From the NCBI GenBank assembly GCA_016199805.1, contig JACQGC010000013.1:1-51826 (forward strand): a DNA stretch of 51,826 nucleotides, in the 5' to 3' direction. Both the position numbers and the translations under genes were made by a program. The notes under the pieces were generated by a model, which ran no database searches, was not told the DNA's origin, and was given only the letters and a program-made list of their open reading frames with translations. The stretch comes from Candidatus Nomurabacteria bacterium (GTDB lineage Bacteria; Patescibacteriota; Minisyncoccia; Phycocordibacterales; UBA9973). Each line of letters begins with the position of its first letter. The first letter of the stretch is position 1. This document shows, piece by piece, positions 1 to 51,826 of this stretch.

Positions 1-155
1 AACGGCAAAACCGCCGCAATACATCTTTTCAATACAAAACCTTTCTTCGTCTCGCAAATGATGATATTTCATATGACAATTAAAATTAATTTTGCTAATG
101 CATTAATTCTAACTGTCCTACTTCAAAGGTAACTAACTACAAAAAGGAGTTTTAA

Positions 156-434
156 ATGCCAGATTATATACCAGCAATAGACTTAGACAACTGCCCATTG
201 AATATTGAAGAAATAAGCGCGGCAATTCTTGCAATTCCGGGCGCCGAGACATTTGGAGGGCGTGCGAATTACTCGAGGGCCTTCGCACTCAAGAATGGAG
301 GCATGGTGCTACTTGCTATGGTTCCCAGAATGCCCAACAGGATCAACATGACCTGCGCTGAAGGCCATCCCGAAGAATTCGGAGAAGTCGCCACTGCACT
401 TGCCCGGCTCAGCATGTCACTGTCTCCCGCTTAA
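156..434 (+). CDS. hypothetical small protein (GC-rich unit A)
   Basis: 92-codon ORF. AAGGAG at 144-149 lies 6 nt before the ATG. Candidate promoter is ATGACA (73-78), N17, TGcTAATGC (93-101). A hairpin plus T-run follows at 476-516. Clearly more G+C-rich than surrounding DNA. No recognisable domain. Confidence 0.45.
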   Translation: MPDYIPAIDLDNCPLNIEEISAAILAIPGAETFGGRANYSRAFALKNGGMVLLAMVPRMPNRINMTCAEGHPEEFGEVATALARLSMSLSPA

Positions 435-475
435 AGCTCCGCACGTGGCCGATACCAAACGTGCACATCAATAAA

Positions 476-516
476 GGCTAGCCCCGCGACAGCATCAACG
501 GGCTAGCCTTTTTTAG
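476..516 (+). terminator. intrinsic terminator of unit A
   Basis: GGCTAGCCCCG (476-486) pairs with CGGGCTAGCC (499-508), followed by TTTTTT. Confidence 0.6.
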
Positions 517-650
517 TTTTAGGTTCCACGTTTAAAGCATGCTATTCTAAAAGGGAATTCGCACCCTTTGACAAGGAGTAGTAACCAATGAAAGCAGTGG
601 TTTTTATGCTTGTTTCTTTTTTCGCTCTCGCTGCCCAGGAAGTTACAATT

Positions 651-1634
651 ACTTTGAATTACGAAACAAGCAAACTCCAATTTTCCCCAGCCACGTTTAA
701 ATACCTTCAGTCGTCTGAATTTTAGAAACAAAATTTAGTTTTTCTCAAAAGCAACTTCTCTACCTAAGCACATAGGCGAGAATCGAATAAATATAATTAG
801 CAAAGTAACCGTCAATGGATCTCGGAAATGAGGTCAGAAAAGCATATAACATTTTAAGATTTCGGAAGTTTAACTCAATCAGCATTCGGGTATTGTAGAG
901 CTGATATTGGAATTCAGTAATAATCTTTTTCATACTCTTCAGTGGTTTAGCAAACAGAATTTTTTTGTTTTCAACATAGAATTCTTTTTCCAAATCCTTT
1001 GAAAAATATCCCGCATCCGCTACGAATATGCCATCGATATTTTTGTTCATTTTCTGAAATGTTTTTCGGTCACTTGAATTTGCGGAGGCAAAGGAAATAG
1101 CCAGGACATTTCGATTCAAATCAGACGTTAATGACATTTTAAGCCCATAGTAGAAGCTTTTTCCAGAATGTCCCCACGATGACAATATTTTCATAATCTT
1201 GTTGTGTTTTGCGTTTTTGTTCAGACAAACTGGAACATCAGTGGAATCGGTATGCTTCACAATGTGAGCATTTTTCTGATTCCATTTTAAGATCATGTTC
1301 AGGACTATGAGAGCTTGAAGAGCGAATCGATTCATCTGCACACAGAGTGTTTTGTAACTTTCTTTCGGATTGAATATTTCAAAGATCGCTTTCTTGGTAG
1401 GAATACCGACGGTCTGTTTGAAGATGGCCAGAGCGATTGTTTCTTCTCCTAGTAAGGCTAACTTTCGACCAGTGCTTTTGTTTAATTTCAGTTGTAATTG
1501 TTTTGAGAAAAACTTAACTTTTGCTAGAATATTGGAGTGTAATTGAATATGGGTATTCATACAAAAAGCACCTCAGGGTGCTTTTTGTATTTTACCTCAT
1601 TTTGGGGAAAATTGGGAGTTTCGTAATTCAAAGT
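651..1634 (-). mobile_element. IS982-family-like insertion sequence (984 bp)
   Basis: Imperfect terminal inverted repeats: actttgaattacgaaac...ccaattttcccca at the left end, and its reverse complement at 1604-1634. Flanked by the direct repeat ACAATT at 645-650 and 1635-1640. Carries a single DDE transposase ORF. Confidence 0.75.
760..1560 (-). CDS. DDE transposase, IS982-family-like
   Basis: 266 aa. Motifs HTDSTDVPVC and FVADAGYFSKDLE resemble the IS982-type DS..P.C and DKGY blocks. Lies inside the IR-bounded element. Confidence 0.75.
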   Translation of the reverse strand: MNTHIQLHSNILAKVKFFSKQLQLKLNKSTGRKLALLGEETIALAIFKQTVGIPTKKAIFEIFNPKESYKTLCVQMNRFALQALIVLNMILKWNQKNAHIVKHTDSTDVPVCLNKNAKHNKIMKILSSWGHSGKSFYYGLKMSLTSDLNRNVLAISFASANSSDRKTFQKMNKNIDGIFVADAGYFSKDLEKEFYVENKKILFAKPLKSMKKIITEFQYQLYNTRMLIELNFRNLKMLYAFLTSFPRSIDGYFANYIYSILAYVLR

Positions 1635-1959
1635 ACAATTAAGTATTTCCATCCAATCACCGGCGCAGCTCAGCAGTTCAACGTAGTGCAGGGCAAACCA
1701 CTCAGCCTGCCCTTGGGCGATTGTGACCCTCTCCAGGTCCCGGAAGTGGTGGGAGGTGGCCAGGTTACGGCCAACTGTCTCATAAAGACCAAAGGAAAGT
1801 TTAGCGCCCGGAAGATTTTCAACGGCCGCCTAGTGAGAAGGGCAACCGGGTTTACTATCCGCTGGAGCAGAAAGTCCTTCCGGCGTCTACAGAAGGAGGC
1901 CAGCGAGTAAGCCTTCTAAAGCCGTCCACCAACGACAATCGCGCAACAGCGCACAACGC

Positions 1960-2003
1960 CCGCCAGCACGGAGAATATCTGTGGTGGCGGATTTTCTTTT
2001 CTT
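1960..2003 (+). terminator. intrinsic terminator of unit B
   Basis: CCGCCAGCAC ... GTGGTGGCGG is an imperfect stem, followed by ATTTTCTTTTCTT. Confidence 0.5.
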
Positions 2004-2520: not shown

Positions 2521-2570
2521 CCTTTACAAATAGAAAATATTTAGTATAGTAATTTTAGAGGTCCTTCTAA

Positions 2571-2768
2571 ATGAGTACATCCATAACCATGACGGAAAAA
2601 GTTAGGCTCTTTCTGGACACCAACGCCGTTGTTCGACAAAGCCGGCTCGCTAAGGCCTACGCCGAGGCCATTGAAGCAAAGGTCGAGCCGAAGTGCCCTG
2701 ACCCAAACTGTGTTGGCGACCTGGTCAACAGCGGCGACTCAATCCACTGCACCGTTTGTGGCAATTAG
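2571..2768 (+). CDS. hypothetical small zinc-ribbon-like protein (GC-rich unit C)
   Basis: 65 aa with CPDPNC...CTVC. Candidate promoter TTTACA (2523-2528), N16, TATAGT (2545-2550). AGAGGT Shine-Dalgarno. Terminator at 2794-2835. GC-rich. Confidence 0.45.
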   Translation: MSTSITMTEKVRLFLDTNAVVRQSRLAKAYAEAIEAKVEPKCPDPNCVGDLVNSGDSIHCTVCGN

Positions 2769-2793
2769 CCGCACAACATGGGCGCCATCAACA

Positions 2794-2835
2794 GCCGCGG
2801 GAGTCTCTGGACTTCCCGCGGCTTCTCGTTTTATA
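2794..2835 (+). terminator. intrinsic terminator of unit C
   Basis: GCCGCGGGA ... TCCCGCGGC stem, followed by TTCTCGTTTTAT. Confidence 0.55.
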
Positions 2836-6335: not shown

Positions 6336-6353
6336 TATTTGATTGCTTTTGAA

Positions 6354-8135: not shown

Positions 8136-9037
8136 AAATAGCAATAATAGGTTTGGGGAAAATGGGGAAGCAGATTGCGAGAAAACTTCACGAAAGTGGG
8201 CACTCTGTCATCGCGCACAACCGAAGCAGAGAGTCAGTGGATGATATGGCGGCCCTTGGTATGACGCCCGCTTACACAAGAGAAGACGTCGTAAAATCAT
8301 TCGGTAGAGAGCCAGTGATACTTTGGATAATGGTTCCATCCGACGCCGTAGACCAAGAACTGGCTGAATGGCTGAAAATTGTGCCAAAGAAAAGTATTTT
8401 GATAGACGGAGGCAATTCTGATTTTCGTTTGACGAAGAAACGCGCAGAATTCGTTTCGAAAAATGGTTCGATTCTCCTGGATATAGGCACCAGCGGCGGA
8501 GTGTGGGGTTACCAGAACGGTTTTTGCATGATGGCGGGCGGGGACAAAGAAGCTTTTAGAGCTGTTGAATCTGTTTTAAAAACACTTTCATTGCCCTCTG
8601 GTACGTATCACCATTTCGGAGAATCCGGTTCGGGCCACTATGTAAAAATGACTCACAATGCAATTGAGTATGGAATAATGGAATCCTTGGCAGAAGGATA
8701 TAGAATCTTAAAGGAAGGTCCTTATCAAAATCTTGATTTGGCGGCGGCGGGTGAAGTCTGGCAACATCATAGCGTCATTACTTCTTGGTTAAATGAGCTT
8801 ACGAAAGACGCCATAAAAGAAAATCCGCAACTGGAAGGAGTCAACGGCAAAGTCGCCGAATCAGGCGAAGCGCGCTGGGCCTTGGAAGTGGCCAGAGATT
8901 TTAAAATAGAAACTCCGTCCATTCAATCCGCGTTTGATGTGCGGCTGGCATCCCAAAAAGGAAATGTAAACTTTGCAACTAAATTACTCGCCCTGATGCG
9001 TAATGCTTTTGGTGGACACAAAATTAATGAAAAATAA
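8132..9037 (+). CDS. gnd: 6-phosphogluconate dehydrogenase (decarboxylating), short ~300-aa form
   Basis: MKIAIIGLGKMGKQIA Rossmann N-terminus. GGNS, SGGVWG and GSGHYVKMTHNAIEYG motifs. ATGA overlap with pgl. Confidence 0.85.
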   Translation: MKIAIIGLGKMGKQIARKLHESGHSVIAHNRSRESVDDMAALGMTPAYTREDVVKSFGREPVILWIMVPSDAVDQELAEWLKIVPKKSILIDGGNSDFRLTKKRAEFVSKNGSILLDIGTSGGVWGYQNGFCMMAGGDKEAFRAVESVLKTLSLPSGTYHHFGESGSGHYVKMTHNAIEYGIMESLAEGYRILKEGPYQNLDLAAAGEVWQHHSVITSWLNELTKDAIKENPQLEGVNGKVAESGEARWALEVARDFKIETPSIQSAFDVRLASQKGNVNFATKLLALMRNAFGGHKINEK

Positions 9038-10064
9038 TACGGCAAACTACATAATTTTTGGCGCTTCTGGCGATTTAGCCAGACGTTATTTGTTGCCGGC
9101 CATTGAAAATTTGCAGAACACAAATGACGTGGGCACTGTCACGCTCGTGTCCCGCCGGGATTATGAAAATTTAAAAAATCTCATTATTGGAGATAATGAA
9201 AAAATTTTTCACTTAGCAATCCCACCCACCGGAGTGCCTTATGCTATCGAAGTAATCAGTAAAGCTTTCGGCCGGGAAAATATAAAAATAATGCTGGAAA
9301 AACCTTTTGGCAATGATTTAAAATCCGCAGAGGCGCTGATAGAGCATATCGATAAATATTTTTCCGAGAATCAAATTTATCGAATTGACCATTACTTAGC
9401 CAAACAATCTTTGCAAAATATTGCAAGTGGAGAATTCGAAAGAAGTGACATTGCCAAGATAGAAATCGTTGCCAGTGAAAAAATAGATATCGAGGGTAGG
9501 GCTGATTTTTATGAGCAAACCGGGGCCTTGAAAGATTTTGTGCAGAGCCATCTCTTGGAAATGGCAGCGGTGTTCCTATCCGGTTCGTTTGAATCCATAA
9601 AACGATATAAAGCCCTAAAGGACTTGGAGATTGTGTGCGATGCGAGCAAACATGAATGTGTCAAAAGAGGCCAATATACAGGCTACCGCGCAGAAGTGGG
9701 CAATGACAAGAGCATGACCGAAACGTTTGTCTCCATAAATATTATTTCAAAATCGCCGGCCTGGCGGGGGATACCAATAACCTTGACCACCGGCAAGGCC
9801 CTGGCAGAGAAATTTACTGAAATAAAAATCAAATATAAAAACGGTCAAGACAAAATATTTAAAATAGAGCATGAGCCGGACACGTATGAAAGGGTGATGC
9901 GAGAAGCAATAGCAGGGAAACATGATTTTTTTGTTTCCAGTGGTGAAATATTAGAGTCCTGGAGAATCCTGGACAACATCCAAAAAACTTGGGAAAAAAA
10001 CGGGGACGATTTAATCATTTACCCCAAAGGAAGTTCCGTCGAAGAAGTGATGAACATAAAATAA
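9027..10064 (+). CDS. zwf: glucose-6-phosphate dehydrogenase, unusually short (345 aa)
   Basis: IIFGASGDLARRYLLPA, EKPFGNDL and YRIDHYLAKQ motifs. Start placed at the MKNNTANY ATG, with an 11-nt overlap with gnd. Confidence 0.8.
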   Translation: MKNNTANYIIFGASGDLARRYLLPAIENLQNTNDVGTVTLVSRRDYENLKNLIIGDNEKIFHLAIPPTGVPYAIEVISKAFGRENIKIMLEKPFGNDLKSAEALIEHIDKYFSENQIYRIDHYLAKQSLQNIASGEFERSDIAKIEIVASEKIDIEGRADFYEQTGALKDFVQSHLLEMAAVFLSGSFESIKRYKALKDLEIVCDASKHECVKRGQYTGYRAEVGNDKSMTETFVSINIISKSPAWRGIPITLTTGKALAEKFTEIKIKYKNGQDKIFKIEHEPDTYERVMREAIAGKHDFFVSSGEILESWRILDNIQKTWEKNGDDLIIYPKGSSVEEVMNIK

Positions 10065-10065
10065 T

Positions 10066-10482
10066 ATGTCGCCACAGGAAGCTTACAATGAATTGGCCTT
10101 GTACACCCTCTCAAAAGGGGACAGCAACTTTATTCATCAATATATTGTGGACGCATTTTGCGCGCAGAATGCAAACGAAAACACCAAACCCGTCGCCATT
10201 ACTTTTGCTTTGGTTGGCTTGTATTTACATCTAGAAAAAAATTACACAGGCAGGGAAGTGCAGTTGGCGCACATAAAATTGGCCGAAAAGCGTAAAGAAT
10301 GGATAAAATTTGATATTCCGAAAGACACAGGTGGTATAATAGTATTTGACGTATTAAAAGCTAAAGAAGGAGACGATAGAGACAATATGATAAACAAATG
10401 GTCGGTATCTGTTTGGCAAGCATACAAAGGGAGCCATAGTAAGGTTGCGAACTGCGTAAGAACCGTTCTTGCGCAGTTGTAA
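10066..10482 (+). CDS. hypothetical protein
   Basis: 138-aa ORF beginning 1 nt after the zwf stop. The last 10 codons are encoded by the REP-like hairpin at 10450-10478. Confidence 0.6.
   Translation: MSPQEAYNELALYTLSKGDSNFIHQYIVDAFCAQNANENTKPVAITFALVGLYLHLEKNYTGREVQLAHIKLAEKRKEWIKFDIPKDTGGIIVFDVLKAKEGDDRDNMINKWSVSVWQAYKGSHSKVANCVRTVLAQL
10450..10478. repeat. REP-like palindrome, copy 1
   Basis: AACTGCGTAAGAAC-C-GTTCTTGCGCAGTT, with one mismatch in the stem. Closely related to the copy at 11175-11203. Confidence 0.6.
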
Positions 10483-10503
10483 TTATTTTTTTATAATACA
10501 AAA

Positions 10504-11172
10504 ATGTTTCGCAAGGATCCATTTATTACAGGCGAATATTATCATATATATAATCGCGGAGTTGATAAGCGAGTAATTTTTAAAGCCTCTAAAGACTATG
10601 AGCGATTTATGATGCTTTTATATCTTGCTAACTCAGAAGAGTCTTTTCGTTTAGAAGAAATTTTAAGCAGGCAGCATAAAACATTTGATGAAATATTGGT
10701 TTTAGAAAAAAGTGAGCCTATTGTTTCGATAGGTGCTTGGTGTTTAATGCCAAATCACTTTCATATGTTAATAAGACAAGAAGTTGATGGAGGAATTACT
10801 AAATTTATGAGAAAATTAGGCGTAGGGTATTCAATGTTTTTTAATATAAAATACAAAAGAATGGGTGCTTTATTCGGTGGATTGTTCAAATCAAAATTGA
10901 TTGGAGTTGATGACAATTACATGAGACAGTTATTTGGGTATATTCACATCAACCCCTTGGAATTAAAATTCCCTGAGTGGAAAGATAAGATTAGTAAACC
11001 TTCTATTGAAATGAGAGATTTCTTAGAATCATATCGATATTCCAGCTATTTGGATTATCTTGGAAAAAATAGAGTAGAAAACAATATAATTAAAGTTGAA
11101 AAATTTCCGGATTATTTTCAAGGTCATCAAGAATTTAAAGATTTCGTCGAGAATTACTTTAAAGAAACATAA
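10504..11172 (+). CDS. REP-associated tyrosine transposase-like (RayT / IS200-like Y1 transposase family)
   Basis: 222 aa. YHIYNRG..., WCLMPNHFHMLI (HUH motif) and a later Y-containing helix. Flanked by two similar palindromes. TATAAT (10492-10497) lies 6 nt before the ATG. Confidence 0.8.
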   Translation: MFRKDPFITGEYYHIYNRGVDKRVIFKASKDYERFMMLLYLANSEESFRLEEILSRQHKTFDEILVLEKSEPIVSIGAWCLMPNHFHMLIRQEVDGGITKFMRKLGVGYSMFFNIKYKRMGALFGGLFKSKLIGVDDNYMRQLFGYIHINPLELKFPEWKDKISKPSIEMRDFLESYRYSSYLDYLGKNRVENNIIKVEKFPDYFQGHQEFKDFVENYFKET

Positions 11173-11174
11173 GA

Positions 11175-11203
11175 AACTGCACGAGAACGGTTCTCGTGCA
11201 GTT
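11175..11203. repeat. REP-like palindrome, copy 2
   Basis: AACTGCACGAGAAC-G-GTTCTCGTGCAGTT, a perfect 14-bp stem beginning 3 nt after the transposase stop. Confidence 0.6.
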
Positions 11204-11243
11204 GATTCTATTCATTGTTTAAAATCTTTGTTATAATAAATTT

Positions 11244-11678
11244 ATGCAAAAAGGAGTTGATTATCCGGCGGTCGCTGTGGGATACCTGGTCCATGACGGA
11301 AAAGGTAATTTTCTTTTTAATAAACGGAGCGTAAATTGCAGGGACGAGCATGGTACTTGGGATTTTGGTGGAGGCGGCTTGGATTTTGGGATGTCGGTTG
11401 AAGGAGTAATGTTGAAAGAGCTGAAAGAAGAGTATTGTGTTGAACCAATTTCATATGAATTTCTGGGGTACGAGGATTTATTCAGAGAAATGAATGGCGC
11501 AAAAACACATTGGATTTTGATTGATTTTCTGGTTTTAGTAGACCGCAACAAAGTGAAAAATGGTGAACCGCACAAATTTGATGAGCTTGATTGGTTTCGT
11601 TTAGACAAACTACCATCGCCATTGCATTCTTCAGTACCGGGAATTTTAAAAAAATTTAAAGATAAATTAAAAATTTAA
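11244..11678 (+). CDS. NUDIX hydrolase
   Basis: Nudix box GGGLDFGMSVEGVMLKELKEEYCV. TATAAT (11232-11237) lies 6 nt before the ATG. Confidence 0.85.
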   Translation: MQKGVDYPAVAVGYLVHDGKGNFLFNKRSVNCRDEHGTWDFGGGGLDFGMSVEGVMLKELKEEYCVEPISYEFLGYEDLFREMNGAKTHWILIDFLVLVDRNKVKNGEPHKFDELDWFRLDKLPSPLHSSVPGILKKFKDKLKI

Positions 11679-11685
11679 AATAATT

Positions 11686-12180
11686 ATGGACATTCCAGAA
11701 TTCGGAATCAAAAGAGAAAACGAGGAACGACGGGACGGGGGTTGCGGGGTTGTTTTTGACCCTGCGACTCAATTATATGCCGTGGGTGAGGATGAGATTG
11801 GGCGACTCCGTCTATTTTCCGGAGGCGTAAATCCGGGTGAAGATATCAAGGATGGCGTTTTGCGAGAAGTAAGAGAAGAAAGCGGACTTTATGATTTTGA
11901 ATATGTCGAAAAAATCGCCGAGGCTTTGTGCCATTTTCATAATACTTTGAAAAATGTGGACCGGGTTGCATATGCGACTTGTTTCCTAGTGATATTGAAA
12001 AGCGCTAAATTAGTGCCCACAGAGCTCGAAGAACACGAGAAATTTGTACTGGTATGGAAGACTCCGGAAGAAATTATGAAGGATTGGGAGCTCCGAAATG
12101 GACAAAAAGATTTAGACCACTGGGTTTATTTTTTCAAGAAATCTATCGAGCGCATAAAGGAATTGGGTTATATAAAATAA
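11686..12180 (+). CDS. NUDIX hydrolase
   Basis: Nudix box GGVNPGEDIKDGVLREVREESGL. Confidence 0.8.
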   Translation: MDIPEFGIKRENEERRDGGCGVVFDPATQLYAVGEDEIGRLRLFSGGVNPGEDIKDGVLREVREESGLYDFEYVEKIAEALCHFHNTLKNVDRVAYATCFLVILKSAKLVPTELEEHEKFVLVWKTPEEIMKDWELRNGQKDLDHWVYFFKKSIERIKELGYIK

Positions 12181-12183
12181 ATT

Positions 12184-12211
12184 TTGCAAAGCTAAAAAAC
12201 AGTAGTATAAT
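12184..12211 (+). promoter_or_regulatory. promoter TTGCAA-N16-TATAAT, -10 ends 5 nt before the ATG at 12217
   Basis: TTGCAAagctaaaaaacagtagTATAATacggcATG. Confidence 0.55.
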
Positions 12212-12216
12212 ACGGC

Positions 12217-13959
12217 ATGTTAATTTTTTATCATTATTTAAAACGATATTGGAAACTTTGTGTTTTGGTTGTCATCCTCGCTTCTGTCAACCAGGTTTTT
12301 TCCCTGCTTGACCCCATTATTTTCCGCCATGTCATAGATGATTACGCTACCAAGTTTGATTTATTTACTCTCGCGCAATTTTTGAAAGGAGTTTCTTTTC
12401 TTCTTTTGCTCGCCGTCGGCGCGGCTTTTATTTCCCGTGTCGCCAAGAACTTTCAGGATTATTATCTGAATACAGTCACCCAGCGCCTCGGCGCCAAGAT
12501 ATACAACGACGGCGTGCAGCATTCGCTCGCTCTGCCATACGCCGTGTTTGAAGACCAGCGTAGCGGGGAGACGCTCGGCACATTGCAAAATGTACGTTTG
12601 TCTAGCGAGACATTTATCACGTCTTTTATAAACGTATTTTTTGTTTCCTTGATTGGATTTGTATTCGTCACCATTTACGCCATCCGTATATATCTCGGCG
12701 TGGCGCTCGTCTTTGCTCTCACCATACCCATCATCGGCATTGTCAGTTATGTGTTGACCAGCCGGGTAAAGAAAATTCAGAAAATAATTTTGGGCGAAAC
12801 TACCGGCCTGGCCGGAGCCACCACGGAGTCCTTGCGGAACATTGAACTGGTAAAAAGTCTCGGACTTGTGGACCAAGAAATCCTGCGACTAAACACCACT
12901 ACCGATAAAATTCTGGCTCTGGAACTGAAAAAGCTCCGATACATACGCAGCATCAGCTTTGTGCAGGGAACGCTCATAAACCTTTTACGGACGAGCATAC
13001 TGGCATTTCTTTTGTACTTGGTATTTGCGCGTGCCATCACTTTCGGACAATTTTTCTCCCTTTACATATATTCTTTCTTTATTTTTGGACCCCTGCAGGA
13101 ACTGGGCACTGTCATAAACAATTACCGTGACGCACAGGTGGCGCTTATAAAATTCAAAGACATTATGTCTGCGCCGATAGAGCCGACACCTCTTCACGCT
13201 AAAGATATCCAAAAGATAAACTCTCTCCAGTTTAAAAATGTAAGTTTCAAATACAGCAGCGCGGACAGGCCAGCTCTTAAAGGCATTTCATTTGATGCGC
13301 GCGCCGGAGAAACGATAGCCTTCGTGGGACCTTCGGGTGCCGGCAAGACTTCCTTGGTAAAATTGTTGGTTGGTCTATATGAGCCCAAGGAGGGAGAAGT
13401 TTTGTATAACAATATAACTACTCAAGAATTGAATTTGAATATTTTGCGCGCGCAATTTGGCTTTGTCACCCAAGACACACAGCTCTTCGCCGGGTCCATC
13501 AAAGAAAACTTACTTTTCGTCAATCCCAATGCCACCGATGCGGAATGCTTGGATGCCCTGCAAAAAAGCGCTGCAAATTCTCTCCTTGAAAGAGCAGACA
13601 AAGGCATAGACACACTCATCGGTGAAGGCGGGGTGAAAGTTTCCGGCGGAGAAAAGCAACGCCTGTCTATAGCCCGCGCGCTGTTGCGCAAACCGACAAT
13701 TTTAATTTTTGACGAAGCGACTTCATCGCTGGATTCCATCACCGAAGAAGAAATTACAAAGACGATTCGTGATGTATCTACAGGAGTATCCAGAATCACA
13801 GTGCTCATAGCCCACAGACTTTCCACCATCATGCATGCAACAAGAATCTATGTATTGGAAAAAGGGCAAATCACCGAAGTAGGCACCCACGAAGAACTCT
13901 TAGCCAAAAAAGGTCTGTACTATGCAATGTGGCGCCAGCAAATAGGGGAGAGGATATAA
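12217..13959 (+). CDS. ABC transporter, fused permease/ATPase (MsbA-like exporter)
   Basis: 580 aa. Six-TM N-terminal half. Walker A GPSGAGKTS, signature SGGEKQR, Walker B ILIFDEATS, H-loop AHRLST. Confidence 0.9.
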   Translation: MLIFYHYLKRYWKLCVLVVILASVNQVFSLLDPIIFRHVIDDYATKFDLFTLAQFLKGVSFLLLLAVGAAFISRVAKNFQDYYLNTVTQRLGAKIYNDGVQHSLALPYAVFEDQRSGETLGTLQNVRLSSETFITSFINVFFVSLIGFVFVTIYAIRIYLGVALVFALTIPIIGIVSYVLTSRVKKIQKIILGETTGLAGATTESLRNIELVKSLGLVDQEILRLNTTTDKILALELKKLRYIRSISFVQGTLINLLRTSILAFLLYLVFARAITFGQFFSLYIYSFFIFGPLQELGTVINNYRDAQVALIKFKDIMSAPIEPTPLHAKDIQKINSLQFKNVSFKYSSADRPALKGISFDARAGETIAFVGPSGAGKTSLVKLLVGLYEPKEGEVLYNNITTQELNLNILRAQFGFVTQDTQLFAGSIKENLLFVNPNATDAECLDALQKSAANSLLERADKGIDTLIGEGGVKVSGGEKQRLSIARALLRKPTILIFDEATSSLDSITEEEITKTIRDVSTGVSRITVLIAHRLSTIMHATRIYVLEKGQITEVGTHEELLAKKGLYYAMWRQQIGERI

Positions 13960-13995
13960 AATATCTTTATAATATTGAGTTTCCTGCTATTTTAC

Positions 13996-14025
13996 TTGAC
14001 AAAATCACTTTTGGCATGCTATAAT
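13996..14025 (+). promoter_or_regulatory. near-consensus sigma70 promoter of GC-rich unit D
   Basis: TTGACA (13996-14001), N18, TGcTATAAT (-10 at 14020-14025). AAGGAGA Shine-Dalgarno about 7 nt before the ATG at 14076. Confidence 0.6.
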
Positions 14026-14075
14026 TCACAAGAATTCAGACGCAATAAATTCAGTTCATCACAAGGAGAAGTTAG

Positions 14076-14534
14076 ATGGTAGCCAACTTGATTATCGGAA
14101 CCGTGGCCGGGTTCGTCCTGGTCATCGACCCCAACAACGAAAAGGGTAAGCGCGAGCGCATCGAGTACAATGATGCCGTCGAAATGAACACCAAACAGCA
14201 CGGCATCTGGCTCGAAGAGGTGCGACGCTTCAACGCTGATACCAAGAACTACGACATGATGGTGATGCAGTTCTTCACACAGTACAAGCGTGAAGACAAC
14301 GGCATTATCACCGAAGAGGAAGGGTTCTCCCAGTCCGGCGATGTTAAGGTCGGCGACGCCACCCATATCGCAAGTTGCGGTTGCGGTAAGACCTCGTGGT
14401 TTAAGATTAACAAGGACTCTGGTGCCTATCTCACCGGCAAATACACCTGCGAAGACTGCGGCGACAAAGAGGATAGGGAAGACAGTCGCTACGATCGCAC
14501 CAACTACGACGGGAGCCAGGAGCGGGAGTATTAG
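14076..14534 (+). CDS. hypothetical small membrane-anchored Cys protein (GC-rich unit D)
   Basis: 152 aa. N-terminal hydrophobic MVANLIIGTVAGFVLVI. CGCGK...CEDCG zinc-ribbon-like pairs. Strong G/C-ending codon bias. Own promoter, Shine-Dalgarno and terminator. Confidence 0.5.
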   Translation: MVANLIIGTVAGFVLVIDPNNEKGKRERIEYNDAVEMNTKQHGIWLEEVRRFNADTKNYDMMVMQFFTQYKREDNGIITEEEGFSQSGDVKVGDATHIASCGCGKTSWFKINKDSGAYLTGKYTCEDCGDKEDREDSRYDRTNYDGSQEREY

Positions 14535-14562
14535 ATTCCACTTCTCGGCGACAGCCAATCAC

Positions 14563-14610
14563 AATCCGCTCTTCACGGCAAAGAATCCGTGAGGGGCGGA
14601 TTTTTTGTTT
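14563..14610 (+). terminator. intrinsic terminator of unit D
   Basis: AATCCGC..TCACGG..CCGTGA..GCGGATT is a long imperfect hairpin, followed by TTTTTTGTTTT. Confidence 0.65.
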
Positions 14611-14850
14611 TATTACAGTATTATCAAACTTGACAGCCGTCACAAAGTGATAATATCCAACATCCCATTTCAGCCATGGCGTAAATGGGGATGGCATAAA
14701 AAATATAGTTTCTACCATCTCGAACATATGTAAAAGATAGTGGAAAATTAAATAACTCATAAATATGCCTTTTTCTTCACAATTCTTTCATATAAGAATT
14801 TCATAATCATTGAGGTTGTAAATTATTATTAATATTTTAATTATTTTTTT

Positions 14851-15360
14851 ATGAGCAACAAAGCGATTATTTGGTTATTAGTTATAATAGTGGTTATTGT
14901 CGGCGGTTATTATTTGCTTATGGGTAATAATAGCTCTTATGTCGAAGAATCGAGTACGCCAAGCTTGGACACTCAGACATCTCCGAGCGCCGCAAGTGAA
15001 AACCCCACCACTCCGGCACCTGCTCCTACTACGCCAGTTGTCACGGTTTCTTCGGACCCTACTCTGGGCAGTTATTTAGTAGCCCCAAACGGAATGACTT
15101 TATACACTTTCAAAAGTGATACTGCTGGCACGAGCACTTGTTATGGAGGATGCTCCACTCTCTGGCCCGCGTATTCTCCTGCAACACCGTTGACAGGAGG
15201 TAACGGTGTTGTGGGAGACCTTTCTACAACTACTCGCACAAACGGCACAGAGCAACTCACCTATAAAGGCATGCCAGTTTACTTTTATAGCAAAGACAAG
15301 AAACCCGGCGACACATACGGACAAAATTTCGGCAAGTTGTGGTTTGTCGTTAAACCATAA
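14851..15360 (+). CDS. secreted COG4315-type (Lipoprotein_15 repeat) protein
   Basis: N-terminal TM/signal segment. MTLYTFKSDTAGTSTCYGGCSTLWPA and GMPVYFYSKDKKPGDTYGQ repeats. Confidence 0.75.
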   Translation: MSNKAIIWLLVIIVVIVGGYYLLMGNNSSYVEESSTPSLDTQTSPSAASENPTTPAPAPTTPVVTVSSDPTLGSYLVAPNGMTLYTFKSDTAGTSTCYGGCSTLWPAYSPATPLTGGNGVVGDLSTTTRTNGTEQLTYKGMPVYFYSKDKKPGDTYGQNFGKLWFVVKP

Positions 15361-15378
15361 TACTGATAGAATGGGAAG

Positions 15379-16479
15379 ATGCTTATAGTAGAACCTATAC
15401 GAAACTGGTATGGCAAATACGAGAGACCAATTTCTTCTCTATCACTCATAGCCGGGTTTGCCTTTGATGCATTTACTTTGCGCAGAGTAGATACTCTTTG
15501 GGAAAACATTTGGATTTTGGGACACCTCATAATTGTGGGCACATTCATAGTACTTATACACGCGCATGAAAGCATCGAAGGTGATGAGAAAAATCCCAGC
15601 AAGGCGCACTTTTGGTATGTGAACATATTGCAGTTTTTCTTCGGAGGAATTCTCTCCACTTATCTGGTTTTTTATTTCCGGAGCGCGGACATTTTTTCCA
15701 CTTGGCCATTTATCTTGGTCCTGGCTTTGGCATTTATAGCCAATGAATCCCTAAAACGCCACTATGTACGTTTTAGTTTTCAGATAAGTTTATTTTTCCT
15801 TTCGGTTTATTCTTTTGCCATTTTTCTGGTGCCGGTTTTGATGCATCAGATAGGTCAAAAAATATTTCTGCTTTCCGGGCTCGCCAGTCTTATCTTCATC
15901 ACAATCTTCACTGTCATTTTGCTTTACGTCATTAAAGATAAATTTAATAAAGACGAAAATGAGAGCAAGAAAATGATTGCACTTCTGATTGTGGGCATCT
16001 TTGGTCTGGTCAATCTTTTATATTTTACAAATCTGATTCCTCCGATTCCGCTTTCTCTCAAAGATGCGGGCATATATCACTCCATCCAAAAAAATGCTGA
16101 TGGGAATTATGATGTTACTTACGAAGACCATGACTGGAGGGAATATTTCAATTTATATCCGGATTTTAATGAAACTCCCGGCTCGCCGGTGTATGCCTTT
16201 AGCGCTATTTTTTCTCCAAAATATTTAAATATTACAGTTGTGCACGAATGGCAGTTTTACGATGAAGCAAAAGGGCAGTGGCAGACAGGTAGTATCGTAA
16301 ATTTACCGGTGATAGGCGGAAGGGATGGGGGATTTAGGACGTATTCCACGAGATATAATTTACAAGCAGGAAAATGGCGAGTCTTGGTAAAAACTCAAGA
16401 TGGGCAAACCATCGGCAGCATAAGATTCAAAATAATACCGACTGACACAGAACCTGTCGTAAAAGACGAAATAAAATAA
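15379..16479 (+). CDS. polytopic membrane protein with C-terminal DUF2914-like domain
   Basis: 366 aa. About 7 TM segments, then WQFYD...GQWQT...GGRDGGFRTYS...GKWRVLVKTQDGQTIGSIRF. TAGAAT (15367-15372) lies 6 nt before the ATG. Confidence 0.65.
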   Translation: MLIVEPIRNWYGKYERPISSLSLIAGFAFDAFTLRRVDTLWENIWILGHLIIVGTFIVLIHAHESIEGDEKNPSKAHFWYVNILQFFFGGILSTYLVFYFRSADIFSTWPFILVLALAFIANESLKRHYVRFSFQISLFFLSVYSFAIFLVPVLMHQIGQKIFLLSGLASLIFITIFTVILLYVIKDKFNKDENESKKMIALLIVGIFGLVNLLYFTNLIPPIPLSLKDAGIYHSIQKNADGNYDVTYEDHDWREYFNLYPDFNETPGSPVYAFSAIFSPKYLNITVVHEWQFYDEAKGQWQTGSIVNLPVIGGRDGGFRTYSTRYNLQAGKWRVLVKTQDGQTIGSIRFKIIPTDTEPVVKDEIK

Positions 16480-16482
16480 AAA

Positions 16483-17133
16483 TTATTTTAAAGTAAGAGT
16501 TAGGGTGTCTAAAACATTTTTACCAACGGTCTGGTCATCCGAATGCCGGGTGACTACCGCCAAGAAATATTTATTGTCTGGGCGGGTAGTAAATGCCCAA
16601 TCATATAGCTCGCCGTCTGCACCGAGAACTTTACTTGCCAGAACAAACCCGAGGCCTGAAGCATTTTTTGTTTCTGAAATATTTTTTGAGCTTAGGAATC
16701 CTCCATCCATTAAATTTTGCAAAATTTTTGCCACATTTCTATTTGGCACTACGGGCTCAAAGAGCAAGGTCGCTTTGGCGCCTTCGGCTATGGTGCCTTT
16801 GGCGTATTCGTTGATGACAAAATACCAACCTCTTGGTGTTATCTCTATACTGCCATCCTCTGGAAAGAGGCGATTGGGTAGTATACAATATTCTTTGGGT
16901 ACCGAAAAAGAATAGCCAAATTTGCTTGCAGTAAAATTATTCGTGCCAAAAGCGCAATCTTTGACGAGTTCAGTTTGCCTGTCTATCAATATGTACGGGT
17001 AAGATACTGTGCCAGTAAAAGCCATATAGATAAATGAAATCATTAAAATAATAAAGAAAAAGGTCAGTAATTTGTGTCTTTTTGTAAAGGCAATTGATTT
17101 GTCCATATAATCTTTTCTTAACAATTTCTTCAT
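16483..17133 (-). CDS. hypothetical membrane-anchored protein
   Basis: 216-aa ORF with one N-terminal TM segment. TATTAT (17140-17145, minus strand) lies 6 nt before the ATG. Confidence 0.6.
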   Translation of the reverse strand: MKKLLRKDYMDKSIAFTKRHKLLTFFFIILMISFIYMAFTGTVSYPYILIDRQTELVKDCAFGTNNFTASKFGYSFSVPKEYCILPNRLFPEDGSIEITPRGWYFVINEYAKGTIAEGAKATLLFEPVVPNRNVAKILQNLMDGGFLSSKNISETKNASGLGFVLASKVLGADGELYDWAFTTRPDNKYFLAVVTRHSDDQTVGKNVLDTLTLTLK

Positions 17134-17158
17134 TATGTTATAATATTATGAAGATATT

Positions 17159-18493
17159 ATGAATTATGCAAGTAATAAAATTAAAGTAGTGGTAATTGGA
17201 CTCCTTGTAATAGGAACTCTGGCAGCGGGCGCAAGAACAATAAGTATTTTACACAACAATCAACTAGTATTAAGCAAAGTCGGCTACCTAAAAGGAACTA
17301 CTCCAGTAGTGGCACCTACCAACCCAACACCCACAAAAACTACGACAAAAAAACCCGCCCCAACTCCAGCAACAACTCCGGCTAAAAATAATGACGACAG
17401 CAACGACAACAGTGATGATTCTCAGATTACTCCCGTAGCTTCCGGAACAACTTTTACTCTCACTATCACTCCTTCGACCAGTGGCATAGTCATTAGCAGC
17501 CCTTCCGGCATTGCTTGCGGCTCTAGTTGCTCGACTACTTTTAGTCCGGGAACTTTAGTAACACTGTCAGCTGCGGCAACTTCGGGATACACTTTCTCAG
17601 GATGGAGCTCCACTTCATGCCCGGGAACAGGAACTTGCGCAGTCACCATGAACTCTAATCAGACAATACTAGCCAGCTTTACTTTGGGTCAAAATCCTTC
17701 ATCACCGGCTTCGGGCGGCTCTGGATATACAGCATCTCAAGTATCTGCTCACAACTCTCAAGGTGATTGTTGGCTCATAATCTCTGGCAAAGTTTATAAT
17801 GTCACCAGTTTCATTTCCCAACATCCCGGCGGAGTAAACGCCATAGTTTCAAGATGCGGCACAGATGCCACCACCGCTTATACCACAAATGGCAACGGTG
17901 GACACGCACACTCGGCGTATGCGCAATCGCTCCTGCCGACTTATTATGTGGGAGATTTAACCACTGGTTCCAGTAACAACAATCCTCCTCCGGTGACAAT
18001 TTATACTTTGTCGGTTACTAAATCTGGAACCGGCTCCGGCAGTGTCTCTGGTGGTTCTATCTCCTGCGGTACTACTTGTTCAACAACAGTAAATGCCGGA
18101 ACATCTGTGTCCCTTACAGCAGCAGCGACTAGTGGTTCTACTTTTGTATCTTGGGGTGGAGCTTGCTCGGGAACAGGAACTTGTTCGTTAACATTGAATT
18201 CAAATCAAAGTGTAACAGCGACATTCAACACCACAACAACCACACCGCCACCGCCTGGAACTTTCACACTTTCTGTAACTTCAATAAACGGCACCGTGAC
18301 CAGCAATCCCTCGGCTATCTCTTGTGGTTCCACCTGCTCTGCAACCTTAGGTAGTGGTACATCCGTAATACTGACTGTTATCCCGAGCTCTGGTCACACT
18401 TTTACCGGCTGGAGTGGAGCTTGCTCGGGAACGAGCACCAGTTGCACAGTGCAAATGAATACGGACAAAACTGTGACAGCTAATTATAATTAA
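17159..18493 (+). CDS. secreted protein with a cytochrome b5-like heme-binding domain and three InlB-B-repeat-like modules
   Basis: 444 aa. N-terminal TM segment and a Pro/Thr linker. CWLIISGKVYNVTSFISQHPGG matches the cyt-b5 core. Three ~75-aa modules of the type TL.V..SG.G.V.S.P.GI.CG..CS......GT.V.L.A....G..F.GWSG.C.GT..C.V.M....V.A.F. Confidence 0.75.
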   Translation: MNYASNKIKVVVIGLLVIGTLAAGARTISILHNNQLVLSKVGYLKGTTPVVAPTNPTPTKTTTKKPAPTPATTPAKNNDDSNDNSDDSQITPVASGTTFTLTITPSTSGIVISSPSGIACGSSCSTTFSPGTLVTLSAAATSGYTFSGWSSTSCPGTGTCAVTMNSNQTILASFTLGQNPSSPASGGSGYTASQVSAHNSQGDCWLIISGKVYNVTSFISQHPGGVNAIVSRCGTDATTAYTTNGNGGHAHSAYAQSLLPTYYVGDLTTGSSNNNPPPVTIYTLSVTKSGTGSGSVSGGSISCGTTCSTTVNAGTSVSLTAAATSGSTFVSWGGACSGTGTCSLTLNSNQSVTATFNTTTTTPPPPGTFTLSVTSINGTVTSNPSAISCGSTCSATLGSGTSVILTVIPSSGHTFTGWSGACSGTSTSCTVQMNTDKTVTANYN

Positions 18494-18503
18494 TCTAAAA
18501 CAT

Positions 18504-18653
18504 ATGAACGAACCACAAAATAATTCTATAGCATCCACAATTATTTTTCTTTGTGCAACTGCGATTCTCGTATTTGCGATAACTTTGCTTGGAGAAAATT
18601 TTGTAACTACGCCGTCGAACAATATTAACAAACAGCAAACACAAACAGAATAA
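18504..18653 (+). CDS. hypothetical small membrane protein (49 aa)
   Basis: ORF below the track cutoff: MNEPQNNSIASTIIFLCATAILVFAITLLGENF... Its TAA overlaps the ATG of the next gene (TAATG). Confidence 0.35.
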   Translation: MNEPQNNSIASTIIFLCATAILVFAITLLGENFVTTPSNNINKQQTQTE

Positions 18654-19063
18654 TGAAAATCTCATTGCACATTCGCGGGACAACTTTTTTACGCATAGGT
18701 ATCTCTATAGTTATTTTGTGGTTTGGGGTACAGCAATTTTTGGACCCTACTATGTGGGTAGGTTTTATTCCGGACTTTATTATTAAACTCTCTCCAGTGA
18801 GCCCAACCACTCTGGTCCACCTAAACGGGGCACTTGAGCTCGTATTCGGTTCAGCACTACTTCTTGGATTTTTCACGCGTATCAGCGCGCTTATCTTGGC
18901 GCTGCACTTATTGGATATCACTCTCACCATAGGCCTAGACAGCATAGGTATGCGAGACCTGGGCCTCACCCTGGCCACCTTTGCCATATTCCTGAACGGA
19001 GCAGATTACATAAGCTTGGACAGAATTTTCTTTTTTAAACCGGAAGAAGAAACTAGAATTTAA
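18653..19063 (+). CDS. DoxX-family-like membrane protein
   Basis: 136 aa, four hydrophobic segments. LRIGISIVILWFGVQQF resembles the DoxX N-terminus. Confidence 0.6.
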   Translation: MKISLHIRGTTFLRIGISIVILWFGVQQFLDPTMWVGFIPDFIIKLSPVSPTTLVHLNGALELVFGSALLLGFFTRISALILALHLLDITLTIGLDSIGMRDLGLTLATFAIFLNGADYISLDRIFFFKPEEETRI

Positions 19064-48485: not shown

Positions 48486-48514
48486 TTGACAAATGGGTTG
48501 GGCTATGCTATGCT
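48486..48514 (+). promoter_or_regulatory. promoter of GC-rich unit E
   Basis: TTGACA (48486-48491), N17, TGcTATGCT (-10 at 48509-48514). The ~85-nt upstream block is duplicated at 48790-48874. Confidence 0.6.
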
Positions 48515-48534
48515 TTTGTGTAGGAGAGATTGCC

Positions 48535-48666
48535 ATGACTACGTTCATTATTTTAGTGACTATGATTTTCGGAGGGTGGGTATGGGCTCCGCAGCCCAAG
48601 CCAGTGAAGGTGGACTGCCACGCCACAGGAACGTGCGTCAAGCACGTCCCCCCTTCCCAGCAGTAG
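48535..48666 (+). CDS. candidate secreted/membrane micro-protein (43 aa, unit E)
   Basis: AGGAGA then 7 nt then ATG. MTTFIILVTMIFGGWVWAPQPKPVKVDCHATGTCVKHVPPSQQ. Below the ORF-track cutoff. Confidence 0.4.
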   Translation: MTTFIILVTMIFGGWVWAPQPKPVKVDCHATGTCVKHVPPSQQ

Positions 48667-48687
48667 GCACGCGATGCGTGCCATCGA

Positions 48688-48735
48688 GACCGATTTCGCT
48701 TGCTGTCAGCAACGCGGGATCGGTCTTTTTATTTT
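48688..48735 (+). terminator. intrinsic terminator of unit E
   Basis: GACCGAT..CGCTTGCTG-T-CAGCAACGCG..ATCGGTC, followed by TTTTTATTTTT. Confidence 0.65.
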
Positions 48736-48845: not shown

Positions 48846-48874
48846 TTGACAAATAGGTTGGGCTATGCTATACT
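48846..48874 (+). promoter_or_regulatory. promoter of GC-rich unit F
   Basis: TTGACA (48846-48851), N17, TGcTATACT (-10 at 48869-48874). Near-identical to the unit E promoter. Confidence 0.6.
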
Positions 48875-48892
48875 TCTCTACGAGGTAATCAA

Positions 48893-49048
48893 ATGTTCTT
48901 CCTAGCTAAGGTATTCTTTTACGGGGCATTGTATTTTGCCCCCGAGCAGATGGTTGAAGGCGGTCGCGGGTTTCGTACCCCTCCGCCCCAGCATACGCCG
49001 GTGGTTTGTGACACCTGCCGCCCTACGGCTCCCCCGAAACGCTACTAA
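48893..49048 (+). CDS. candidate secreted/membrane micro-protein (51 aa, unit F)
   Basis: GAGGT then 6 nt then ATG. MFFLAKVFFYGALYFAPEQMVEGGRGFRTPPPQHTPVVCDTCRPTAPPKRY. Below the ORF-track cutoff. Confidence 0.4.
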   Translation: MFFLAKVFFYGALYFAPEQMVEGGRGFRTPPPQHTPVVCDTCRPTAPPKRY

Positions 49049-49071
49049 TAAGTTGCGTGCGGGGAAAATCA

Positions 49072-49125
49072 AACCGGAGTTCGTTTGTTGCCATGCAACA
49101 CGACCTCCGGTTTTTCTCTTTTTAT
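49072..49125 (+). terminator. intrinsic terminator of unit F
   Basis: AACCGGAG..TGTTGC-CAT-GCAACA..CTCCGGTT, followed by TTTCTCTTTTT. Confidence 0.65.
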
Positions 49126-51057: not shown

Positions 51058-51086
51058 TTGACATACCCTTATATTTATGCTATTTT
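51058..51086 (+). promoter_or_regulatory. promoter of GC-rich unit G
   Basis: TTGACA (51058-51063), N17, TGcTATTTT (-10 at 51081-51086). AAGGAG then 6 nt then the ATG at 51115. Confidence 0.55.
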
Positions 51087-51114
51087 GTGTAAAATTCACT
51101 GCAAGGAGTTCTTT

Positions 51115-51465
51115 ATGAGTATGGCAAGAAGGCCATTTAACGAGACAGTAGTAGGAATGATACAATCTGCGTCAACGAGCGATCTCGAGTTGATTGCGAG
51201 CTTTCTCGTCAACACTATAATGGAGAAAAACCACGACGCAATCGTGGAAGCATGGCGGGTCAGAGGCGCTCAGGATAAGTACGCACGGGAGTGGGTGGAG
51301 CACGTAGCGCAAATTGTCTTGCGCTACAAAGCGGAGATCGAGGCGACGGCGAACCATCCGCAGCCTGTCGTCAGTGGAGGTCGCGCTGGTGCAGCCTTCG
51401 TGAACGATGTTATTATGCTCATCCCCTTCGGCGACGAAGATGGAGACGATTTCGTCCGTCAATAG
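51115..51465 (+). CDS. hypothetical protein (GC-rich unit G)
   Basis: 116 aa from the Shine-Dalgarno-preceded ATG (MSMARRPFNETV...). The longer track ORF would start inside the promoter. GC-rich. No recognisable domain. Confidence 0.45.
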   Translation: MSMARRPFNETVVGMIQSASTSDLELIASFLVNTIMEKNHDAIVEAWRVRGAQDKYAREWVEHVAQIVLRYKAEIEATANHPQPVVSGGRAGAAFVNDVIMLIPFGDEDGDDFVRQ

Positions 51466-51826
51466 CGAGTCCTCTGGGCCGAGAGTCCCGACGATCACTC
51501 TCACAATCGGAATAGCCGCAACATCCGGGAGGAAGTTACGGCTATTTTTGTTTTGGCCACGGCTATCTTACACCGTGGCCCGATTAAACCAATCCCATGC
51601 TCCCATGAATCGGCCTCCTTTCACAAAGAACAAATCTGCGTCGGATTCCTACCACCCCGAATCTTTTTGTGGCGCAGATGTTTTGTATGCCAAACGGACA
51701 ACGCCGCCTGACAGAGTAAACACCTCGTTTGTGGTAGGAGAATTCTTGAGGAATTCCTCCAACAACTTTTGCAACTCTTCTCTCTTCTGACGCATAATCA
51801 CTCCGAAGAACAAAAATACCAACCAT

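Follow-up and report, generated by a model that had tools for sequence, protein, structure and literature searches.

We analysed a 51,826-nt stretch of the genome of a Candidatus Nomurabacteria bacterium, referred to below as the window, in which seven short segments (c1 to c7) had been singled out from the sequence as self-contained transcription units of foreign composition. The focal unit, c4, lies between an ABC transporter gene and a Lipoprotein_15 gene. All seven segments and their open reading frames (ORFs) exist, with coordinates that were slightly corrected (Table 1), and all are on the plus strand. They are clustered at the ends of the window, three within 1-2.8 kb and three within 48.5-51.5 kb. 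When the window was searched for further ORFs preceded by a Shine-Dalgarno (SD) motif and rich in G+C at third codon positions (GC3), no additional intergenic unit was found. The 51,826 nt contain no tRNA gene, no rRNA and no Rfam family at its gathering score.

Native genes and the seven units carry different expression signals

The 56 native genes of the window served as the comparison set for c1-c7. An SD motif 4-20 nt before the start codon was found in 7/7 units versus 1/56 native genes. Conversely, a TGnTATAAT-type -10-like hexamer ending 4-11 nt before the ATG was present in 24 native genes (~43%) and in none of the seven units, compared with 7% at random ATGs. The contrast between units and native genes is therefore real, and sharper than the original prediction had claimed. 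With the -10 box this close to the ATG the native genes look leaderless, and those of this type, including the ribosomal-protein genes for L27 and L9, have neither a -35 box nor an SD. To judge from these patterns, the host appears to run largely on leaderless mRNAs. According to Tsurumaki et al. (2022, PMC9297842), no more than 48% of Parcubacteria have an anti-SD motif that can be detected, and many lineages of this kind may lack it in their 16S rRNA.

A near-consensus TTGACA promoter had been predicted for every unit, and this was borne out for c4-c7, which hold the four best TG-extended TTGACA promoters of the window. No other unit has a TTGACA -35 box: c3 has TTTACA, c2 has an extended -10 only and c1 lacks a convincing promoter. 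Leaders, taken from 7 nt beyond the end of the -10 to the ATG, are an estimated ~12-44 nt in the six units with a recognisable -10 (c2-c7), where 20-55 nt had been stated originally. In line with the prediction, the 3′ region of all seven units folds into a long GC-rich hairpin followed by a T-run, with z scores of -3.4 to -6.0 relative to shuffled sequences. By sequence prediction each unit would therefore possess its own promoter and terminator, the promoters of c1 and c2 being weak, and we infer that the promoters, SD motifs and terminators may be functional in this cell. Units c5 and c6 are antiparallel to both neighbours, as had been noted. Cumulative GC skew reaches its maximum at ~27 kb, and gene orientation turns from plus to minus at the same place, which looks like what is expected for a replication terminus. 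Since all seven units lie on the plus strand, c5-c7 run head-on to their neighbours and would do so to replication as well.

The second unit is interrupted by an insertion sequence (IS) with 18-nt perfect terminal inverted repeats (650-667 and 1618-1635) and a CAAT duplicated on both sides. Reconstructed without the IS (588-649 joined in frame to 1640-1910), c2 encodes a 110-aa basic protein of secreted type with a GC3 of 0.67. The c3 product has 65 aa and a zinc ribbon (CPDPNC..CTVC), the c5 product 43 aa with a single hydrophobic helix and the motif CHATGTC, and the c6 product likewise contains one hydrophobic helix; the 28-nt c6 promoter is 96% identical to that of c5. The cysteine motifs are as originally described. 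A start resembling a signal peptide or transmembrane segment, proposed for four products, was recovered for c2 (signal-like), c5 and c6 (hydrophobic helix), whereas the corresponding segment of c4 is predicted to form beta strands. The c7 product is a 116-aa helical ORFan, and an AlphaFold2 model built without an alignment was unusable (predicted local distance difference test, pLDDT, 56.8).

Two further observations adjoin c7. A possible eighth unit, convergent with c7, occupies 51580-51826 on the minus strand, where a small ORF (MRQKREELQKLLEEFLKNSPTTNEVF...) follows GGAG and the upstream part lies beyond the window end. A probable T-box leader lies at 50906-51040 on the minus strand, upstream of an Asp/Asn-tRNA synthetase gene (49472-50848). 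It scored 31 bits versus an Rfam gathering score of 93; the sequence AAAGUAGGGUGGCACCGCGA and the terminator/antiterminator are convincing, and the Stem I alignment is weak. Since the Rfam alignment runs into the c7 promoter and its 3′ half alone is convincing, the T-box and the c7 promoter were treated as back-to-back features.

Table 1. Coordinates of the units, their parts and related elements (window positions unless a contig is named).
Feature	Position	Strand	Content
c1	73..516	+	SD AAGGAG; ORF 156-434 (92 aa); terminator 473-516; promoter not convincing
c2, 5′ part	520..649	+	extended -10 TGCTATTCT; SD AAGGAG; first 20 codons from 588, signal-peptide-like MKAVVFMLVSFFALAAQE
IS inside c2	650..1635	-	~986 bp; DDE transposase ORF 760-1560 (Pfam DDE_Tnp_1_3, 2.5e-21)
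c2, 3′ part and terminator	1640..2003	+	coding 1640-1910
c3	2523..2835	+	TTTACA-N16-TATAGT; weak SD AGAGGT; ORF 2571-2768; terminator
Stretch without counterpart in L010	13960..14802		c4 unit and ~190 bp of AT-rich DNA
c4 (focal unit)	13996..14610	+	ORF 14076-14534, 152 aa; promoter, SD leader, terminator
c4 promoter	13996..14025	+	TTGACA-N18-TATAAT with TG extension (TGCTATAAT); 12/12 match; best promoter match in 1-20000
c4 leader	14033..14075	+	~44 nt; two ATTCAG motifs; SD AAGGAGA 7 nt before ATG
c4 ORF	14076..14534	+	152 aa, acidic zinc-ribbon protein (CxC...CxxC), C-terminal ..TNYDGSQEREY tail; GC3 0.75
c4 intrinsic terminator	14563..14610	+	16-bp stem, then UUUUUUGUUUU; -32.2 kcal/mol, z -5.4
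c5	48486..48735	+	TTGACA-N17-TATGCT (TG-extended); SD AGGAGA; ORF 48535-48666; terminator
c6	48846..49125	+	tandem sister of c5; ORF 48893-49048 (51 aa, CDTC); terminator
c7	51058..51545	+	TTGACA-N17-TATTTT (TG-extended); SD AAGGAG; ORF 51115-51465; terminator
Intergenic element, copies in L004	70-195, 652-765
Intergenic element, copies in L006	1689-1792, 2066-2200, 2560-2676, 3151-3272
Intergenic element, copies in L014	3477-3600, 4045-4170

The units differ from native genes in composition at all codon positions

GC3 was 0.51-0.75 in the units versus 0.416±0.077 in native genes (maximum 0.553; n=56; Mann-Whitney p=3e-8), and in 6/7 units it exceeded that of every native gene. The share of C among pyrimidine-ending codons (NNC/NNY) also separated units from native genes (Fisher p=5e-13), confirming the use of G/C-ending codons that had been described. 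Pooled G+C at first, second and third codon positions (GC1/GC2/GC3) was 0.551/0.421/0.646 in the units and 0.457/0.367/0.415 in native genes, and in the annotated frame GC3 exceeded GC2 in every unit. The dinucleotide signature deviated as well: pooled units lay at a distance of 0.109 from native genes, versus 0.054±0.017 for length-matched native samples (p ~0.012); one unit was read a single base out of frame here, to which dinucleotides are insensitive. All of these measures agree with the foreign composition proposed in the original prediction, and its base counts (G+C 38/60 in 14101-14160, 15/60 in 14761-14820) were exact on recount. Its description of the genome as AT-rich held at most in part: the 41% G+C of the window is too high to count as extremely AT-rich, and G+C rises to 50-54% in several native stretches.

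A distinct class of highly expressed genes had been offered as an alternative source of this composition. In the pooled L27 and L9 genes the third-position frequencies are A 0.34, C 0.31, G 0.18 and T 0.18, that is, C is preferred over T and A over G, whereas the units are enriched in both C (0.35) and G (0.27). The share of G among purine-ending codons (NNG/NNR) is 0.56-1.0 in 6/7 units (0.25 in c1), compared with 0.24 in native genes and 0.13 in L27. Since the units show higher G+C at every codon position together with an excess of G-ending codons, a pattern not shared by L27 and L9, they look foreign rather than highly expressed, and the reading of them as highly expressed native genes was set aside as disfavoured. 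The composition of the units thus fits a higher-GC donor and not host translational selection, an argument that is suggestive rather than conclusive because the highly expressed reference comprised two genes.

c4 encodes a conserved zinc-ribbon protein

Four close homologs of the c4 protein (51-72% identity) were found in a large protein database, and a profile search recovered 33 clusters among 1.84 billion representatives, nearly all of 120-160 aa. Members share an N-terminal G.VAGFVL.IDP.N..G..ER.E motif, a central FT.YRRDDNG..EE.EG motif, four invariant cysteines (CxC...CxxC) and a conserved C-terminal DFTNYDG.QEREY tail. The ratio of nonsynonymous to synonymous substitution (dN/dS), the check that had been proposed, was 0.18-0.65 between pairs of family members, with dS of ~1 or more (saturated) in nearly all pairs. 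Two giant repeat proteins also matched by the c4 profile (P0019 and P0035) carry P_proprotein and PPC domains, and were judged to reflect similarity of acidic linkers rather than homology.

An AlphaFold2 model of c4 built from 24 sequences reached a pLDDT of 84.7. In it a beta-beta-alpha-beta-beta domain precedes a zinc ribbon, and the acidic tail is disordered. Rather than as a signal peptide or transmembrane segment, the hydrophobic N-terminus was modelled as two beta strands forming a hairpin of the globular domain (pLDDT 83-95). Neither the protein nor its family gave a significant match to Pfam, PHROGs or PADLOC, to PDB by sequence or fold, or to BFVD by fold. A resemblance of the model to ERH-like proteins in Foldseek was not significant (E ~0.1, TM score ~0.3-0.4), and the best fold matches all had TM scores <0.5. 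Taken together, these observations indicate that c4 encodes a real, conserved, soluble protein with a zinc ribbon, which is under purifying selection and belongs to a rare, uncharacterised family.

Scans of the proteins of all seven units against Pfam, PHROGs and PADLOC gave no match. From their sequences c2, c5 and c6 are candidates for small secreted or membrane peptides. By analogy, c3 and c4 would be candidates for the kind of acidic zinc-ribbon protein that mobile elements often use against host or competitor functions. The earlier suggestion that the products are host-interaction or effector peptides is pure speculation, as Pfam, PHROG, PADLOC, PDB and BFVD provided no match.

c4 is missing from the syntenic site of a relative

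A 73-kb JGI contig (L010) is syntenic with the window across pgl, 6PGD, G6PD, NUDIX, the ABC transporter, Lipoprotein_15 and DUF2914, and carries a 91%-identical ortholog of the ABC transporter beside c4. Slightly more distant orthologs of this transporter come from sources that put the organism in Patescibacteria, near Candidatus Nomurabacteria or Paceibacterota. The comparison with a sister genome that had been called for revealed an empty site: the gap between the ABC transporter and Lipoprotein_15 genes is 117 bp in L010 versus 891 bp in the window, with alignment confined to the ~45 nt that directly precede the lipoprotein gene. We therefore conclude that c4 is an insertion polymorphism. 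The same junctions from ABC transporter through c4 to lipoprotein gene are present in contig L003 of an independent Logan assembly, and therefore the c4 locus is not an assembly chimera. No unit was found in L010 or in a more distant relative (L012), in 21.7 kb of each. Horizontal acquisition, as originally proposed, is thus supported at least for c4, which is absent from the L010 site and has homologs at unrelated sites in other Patescibacteria-like contigs.

Also without counterpart in L010 is the DNA at 14611-14800. It contains another TTGACA box (14631), poorly spaced from TGATAATAT, and a hairpin at 14661-14693 (CATCCCATTT..AAATGGGGATG), and may represent either a small RNA or what is left of a second unit.

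Relatives of c4 occur alone, in arrays and in an integrated island

Every c4-family copy combines a GC3 of 0.66-0.83 with an SD, in flanks of 0.41-0.60 G+C. The arrangement of the gene varies between genomes. A distant relative in L002, which shares only the N-terminal 40 residues (58% identity), stands alone between prfB and rpsP with its own TTGACT-N17-TGATAAATT promoter, an AAGGAGG SD and a terminator, and is GC-rich compared with its flanks. In L005 a terminator stands after the family gene, and the next gene is leaderless and AT-rich. In a metagenome-assembled genome (MAG) of 52% G+C (L001), native genes mostly lack an SD and the c4 homolog has one. In L015 (60% G+C) two tandem paralogs lie beside an asparagine-synthetase-like gene, and here the composition of the family matches its surroundings.

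In L004 and L006 a single TTGACA/TATAAT promoter precedes an array of small SD-led, GC-rich genes, which include the family gene and a gene for a CxxC-rich zinc-finger protein. The genes in these arrays are separated by a ~110-nt element that begins with a variable GC hairpin; a second stem, closed by CUCCUG and CAGGAG, comes next, and UUCUUU and an SD complete it. Across eight copies (Table 1) 18 base pairs are supported, 12 of them with compensatory changes. The element matched no Rfam family in L014, the sole locus scanned, and an exact-pattern search of IMG/VR found none. A covariance model of it (R1) found no full copy in the window; the AAATTCAG..TTC..AGGAGA part of the c4 leader aligns with the 3′ part of the element where it precedes c4 homologs in L004 and L006.

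In L014 the c4 homolog belongs to a three-gene operon of 51-55% G+C that ends in a terminator and has a promoter (TTGACAAATG...TGCTATGCT...TAGGAGA) of the same type as those of c5 and c6. This operon is embedded in an AT-rich island (38-42% G+C) ending in a large serine recombinase gene, whose 3′ end overlaps the 3′ end of the transfer-messenger RNA (tmRNA) gene, with smpB adjacent. The L014 operon is a moron in the classical sense. Scans of the genes that accompany c4 homologs gave weak sub-threshold matches for the zinc-finger protein and for a 187-aa L014 protein, as well as the known SLFN_AlbA_2 domain.

Two of these contigs hold further sequence features. The tmRNA-integrated island of L014 also contains a LOOT RNA at 1862-1978 on the plus strand (RF03000; its 70.5 bits exceed the gathering score). 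Beside the c4 homolog in L001 (Patescibacteria MAG REEB161), tandem heptamer repeats (CTCCATT)n occupy 6690-6790. Further copies occur at other places in the locus, and in several ORFs their translation gives MENGEWR/SILHSPF repeats.

Searches for a phage source

A tblastn search of INPHARED with c1, reconstructed c2, c3, c4 and c7 gave nothing, a single c3 match at E=0.9 being disregarded. IMG/VR was scanned with two alignments of the c4 family, the intergenic element and two co-module proteins, and no match was obtained. Two IMG/VR sequences (L008 and L016) were rejected as chance matches inside phage structural and terminase genes.

A proposed origin of the units as horizontally acquired moron-like genes

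We propose, with a probability of about 0.72, that the seven segments are horizontally acquired, self-contained 'moron-like' accessory transcription units of unassigned function. On this proposal each unit would bring signals foreign to the recipient's own genes, namely a sigma-70-type promoter (with a full -35 in 4/7), a short leader with a strong SD and an intrinsic terminator, and would yield an insulated mRNA at any site of insertion, even when it faces its neighbours head-on. Owing to its own -35 promoter, SD leader and terminator, a unit would be independent of the place and orientation of insertion. The high G+C at all codon positions would reflect an origin in a higher-GC gene pool (~52-60%), which may circulate among Patescibacteria-like genomes and their integrative elements. 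Relatives of c4 travel as cargo of polycistronic GC-rich modules, one of them inside the tmRNA-integrated island with the large serine recombinase. Insertion could have followed either from decay of an integrated element or from illegitimate recombination after DNA uptake.

Several observations weigh against this proposal. Conservation and insertion status are documented for c4 only among the seven units, and c7 is an ORFan. The ends of c4 show no target-site duplication, inverted repeat or att-like repeat; in the window the units are flanked by housekeeping genes, with no integrase or phage gene beside any of them; and INPHARED, IMG/VR, PHROGs and PADLOC yielded no donor, whether phage, plasmid or another replicon. 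The expression of the units is entirely predicted from sequence, and in c1 GC3 is modest (0.51) and a clear promoter is lacking. In addition, synonymous sites are saturated between nearly all c4 copies, and high GC3 and the SD persist across hosts of differing G+C. As GC3 is high despite saturated dS, a recent common donor cannot alone explain the composition. Either the c4 family resides mostly in GC-rich replicons, as hinted by L015, L007 and L009, or selection maintains these features. A stronger form of the latter, in which selection upholds GC-rich, SD-led, self-terminated modules circulating among Paceibacteria as an orthogonal system for the expression of mobile accessory genes, seems improbable to us.

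The same persistence bears on the idea that the units are a native, specially expressed class, in which a small regulon of SD-led, strongly promoted and terminated genes would exist beside a leaderless bulk, with GC-rich codons selected for mRNA stability or, for example, to avoid spurious internal -10/ATG leaderless starts. A GC3 of 0.66-0.83 and an SD in every c4-family copy at host G+C of 0.41-0.60, the SD of the L001 homolog among native genes that mostly lack one, and promoters of one type ((A)TGCTAT with a -35 box) are what such a regulon would predict. We nevertheless consider it unlikely: c4 is missing from the syntenic site in L010, relatives show no unit over 2 x 21.7 kb, the c4 family is very rare (33 clusters/1.84 billion representatives) and c7 an ORFan, GC1 and GC2 are shifted too, which is not expected from codon selection, and one c4 homolog resides in an integrated mobile island (L014). 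Least probable is that the segments are structured non-coding RNAs or assembly artefacts. The elaborate terminator hairpins could suggest this, and c5, c6 and c7 are without detectable homologs and of putative coding status. Rfam covariance models, raised in the original prediction as a possible route to refutation, gave no match in any unit even at E<=1, and GC3 exceeds GC2 in each of them. For c4 the idea is refuted, given its protein-level conservation, dN/dS <1, invariant cysteine ligands, confident fold and junctions reproduced in the Logan assembly.

It is possible, if doubtful, that one or more prophages or integrative elements decayed and left the units behind, selectively useful or neutral self-expressed morons having outlived deletion of the backbone. 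L014 shows the intact state, with a moron operon and a serine recombinase at tmRNA; units lie at both window ends, one of them struck by an IS; and the GC-skew maximum at ~27 kb suggests a terminus-like region, a usual sink for such elements. However, inspection of the window around the units showed neither backbone fragments nor att sites or pseudogenes, and both c4 and its L002 relative are solitary between housekeeping genes. Decay of this kind also counts as a route within horizontal acquisition of moron-like units rather than as a true alternative to it.

Comparison with known systems

Morons are said to have been defined by Juhala and Hendrix in 2000 in lambdoid phages such as HK97 and lambda. 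The units resemble them in being independent promoter-ORF-terminator units, in having a composition unlike their surroundings and in a product dispensable for the neighbours; c4 furthermore sits between genes that are adjacent in L010, and the L014 c4-family operon lies inside an integrated element. They differ in standing between housekeeping genes and not in a recognisable prophage, with no carrier phage found, and in a recipient whose native genes use another mode of initiation (leaderless, without SD). The phage-moron identity originally put forward therefore stands as regards predicted autonomy, deviant composition and, for c4, insertion, that is, three of four moron features. Location in a prophage applies to the L014 member and not to the window, and INPHARED and IMG/VR yielded no phage origin.

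Phage T7-type early operons have intercistronic processing hairpins. The L004, L006 and L014 arrays are alike in that small SD-led genes are split by a conserved stem-loop with compensatory changes; they differ in that neither their sequences nor their proteins resemble those of T7. The window lacks the element, and any likeness in cleavage would be by analogy. The hydrophobic peptides of type I toxin-antitoxin systems recall c5 and c6 only, in their tandem loci, length (43-51 aa), single hydrophobic helix and strong near-identical promoters, yet no antisense RNA gene or promoter was identified at c5/c6 and the Pro-rich, Cys-containing tails are atypical. Integron cassettes were rejected as a model, as the units have their own promoters and terminators, share no attC-like imperfect inverted repeat and have no integrase nearby.

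Horizontal transfer, genomic islands and prophages of Paceibacteria are documented in Patescibacteria (PMC12455944). The islets and single-gene acquisitions described there are similar to the units in being strain-specific accessory DNA of deviant composition, exchanged mostly among Patescibacteria. They differ in comprising islands of 2.7-45 kb and single transferred genes recognised by phylogeny, with no sub-kilobase units carrying their own -35/-10 promoter, SD and terminator; the word 'promoter' does not occur in the main text of that paper.

Patescibacteria (candidate phyla radiation, CPR) are ultra-small, mostly uncultured symbionts whose accessory genes, and the expression of these genes, are nearly unknown. 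The division of expression signals in the window, with native genes leaderless and SD-less and imported ones equipped with a leader and SD, insulated by a terminator and mostly preceded by a recognisable promoter, would offer a simple means of recognising, from sequence, which genes such genomes have recently acquired; no description of this division surfaced in literature searches. It also provides a concrete case in which to ask whether initiation that depends on an SD still operates where the anti-SD is reported to have been lost: if the anti-SD is absent in this lineage, the translation signals of the modules could not work conventionally in the carrier cell. The L014 island gives the first link of these genes to an integrative element at tmRNA. 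Finally, two things are newly defined by the analysis: a family of small zinc-ribbon proteins, and a conserved structured RNA element that occurs between genes alongside the family in other contigs.

Other features of the window

Two near-identical 29-nt perfect palindromes, 10450-10478 (AACTGCGTAAGAACCGTTCTTGCGCAGTT) and 11175-11203 (AACTGCACGAGAACGGTTCTCGTGCAGTT), bracket an ORF at 10504-11172 (G+C 0.30) whose product is an IS200-like Y1 transposase (Pfam Y1_Tnp, 8.5e-6), an arrangement similar to that of a unit of IS200 type or of REP/RAYT type (repetitive extragenic palindrome and its associated tyrosine transposase). In an AT-rich intergenic region, a perfect inverted repeat with a 26-bp stem (cagtgtcgggagtaaaatttcttcac ... 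gtgaagaaattttactcccgacactg) at 42330-42405 comes just after a TTGACA-N17-TAAAAT box, with no obvious ORF. At 42457-42560 a second such box, TTGACA-N17-TATTAT, is followed by a short GC-rich hairpin, again with no obvious ORF.

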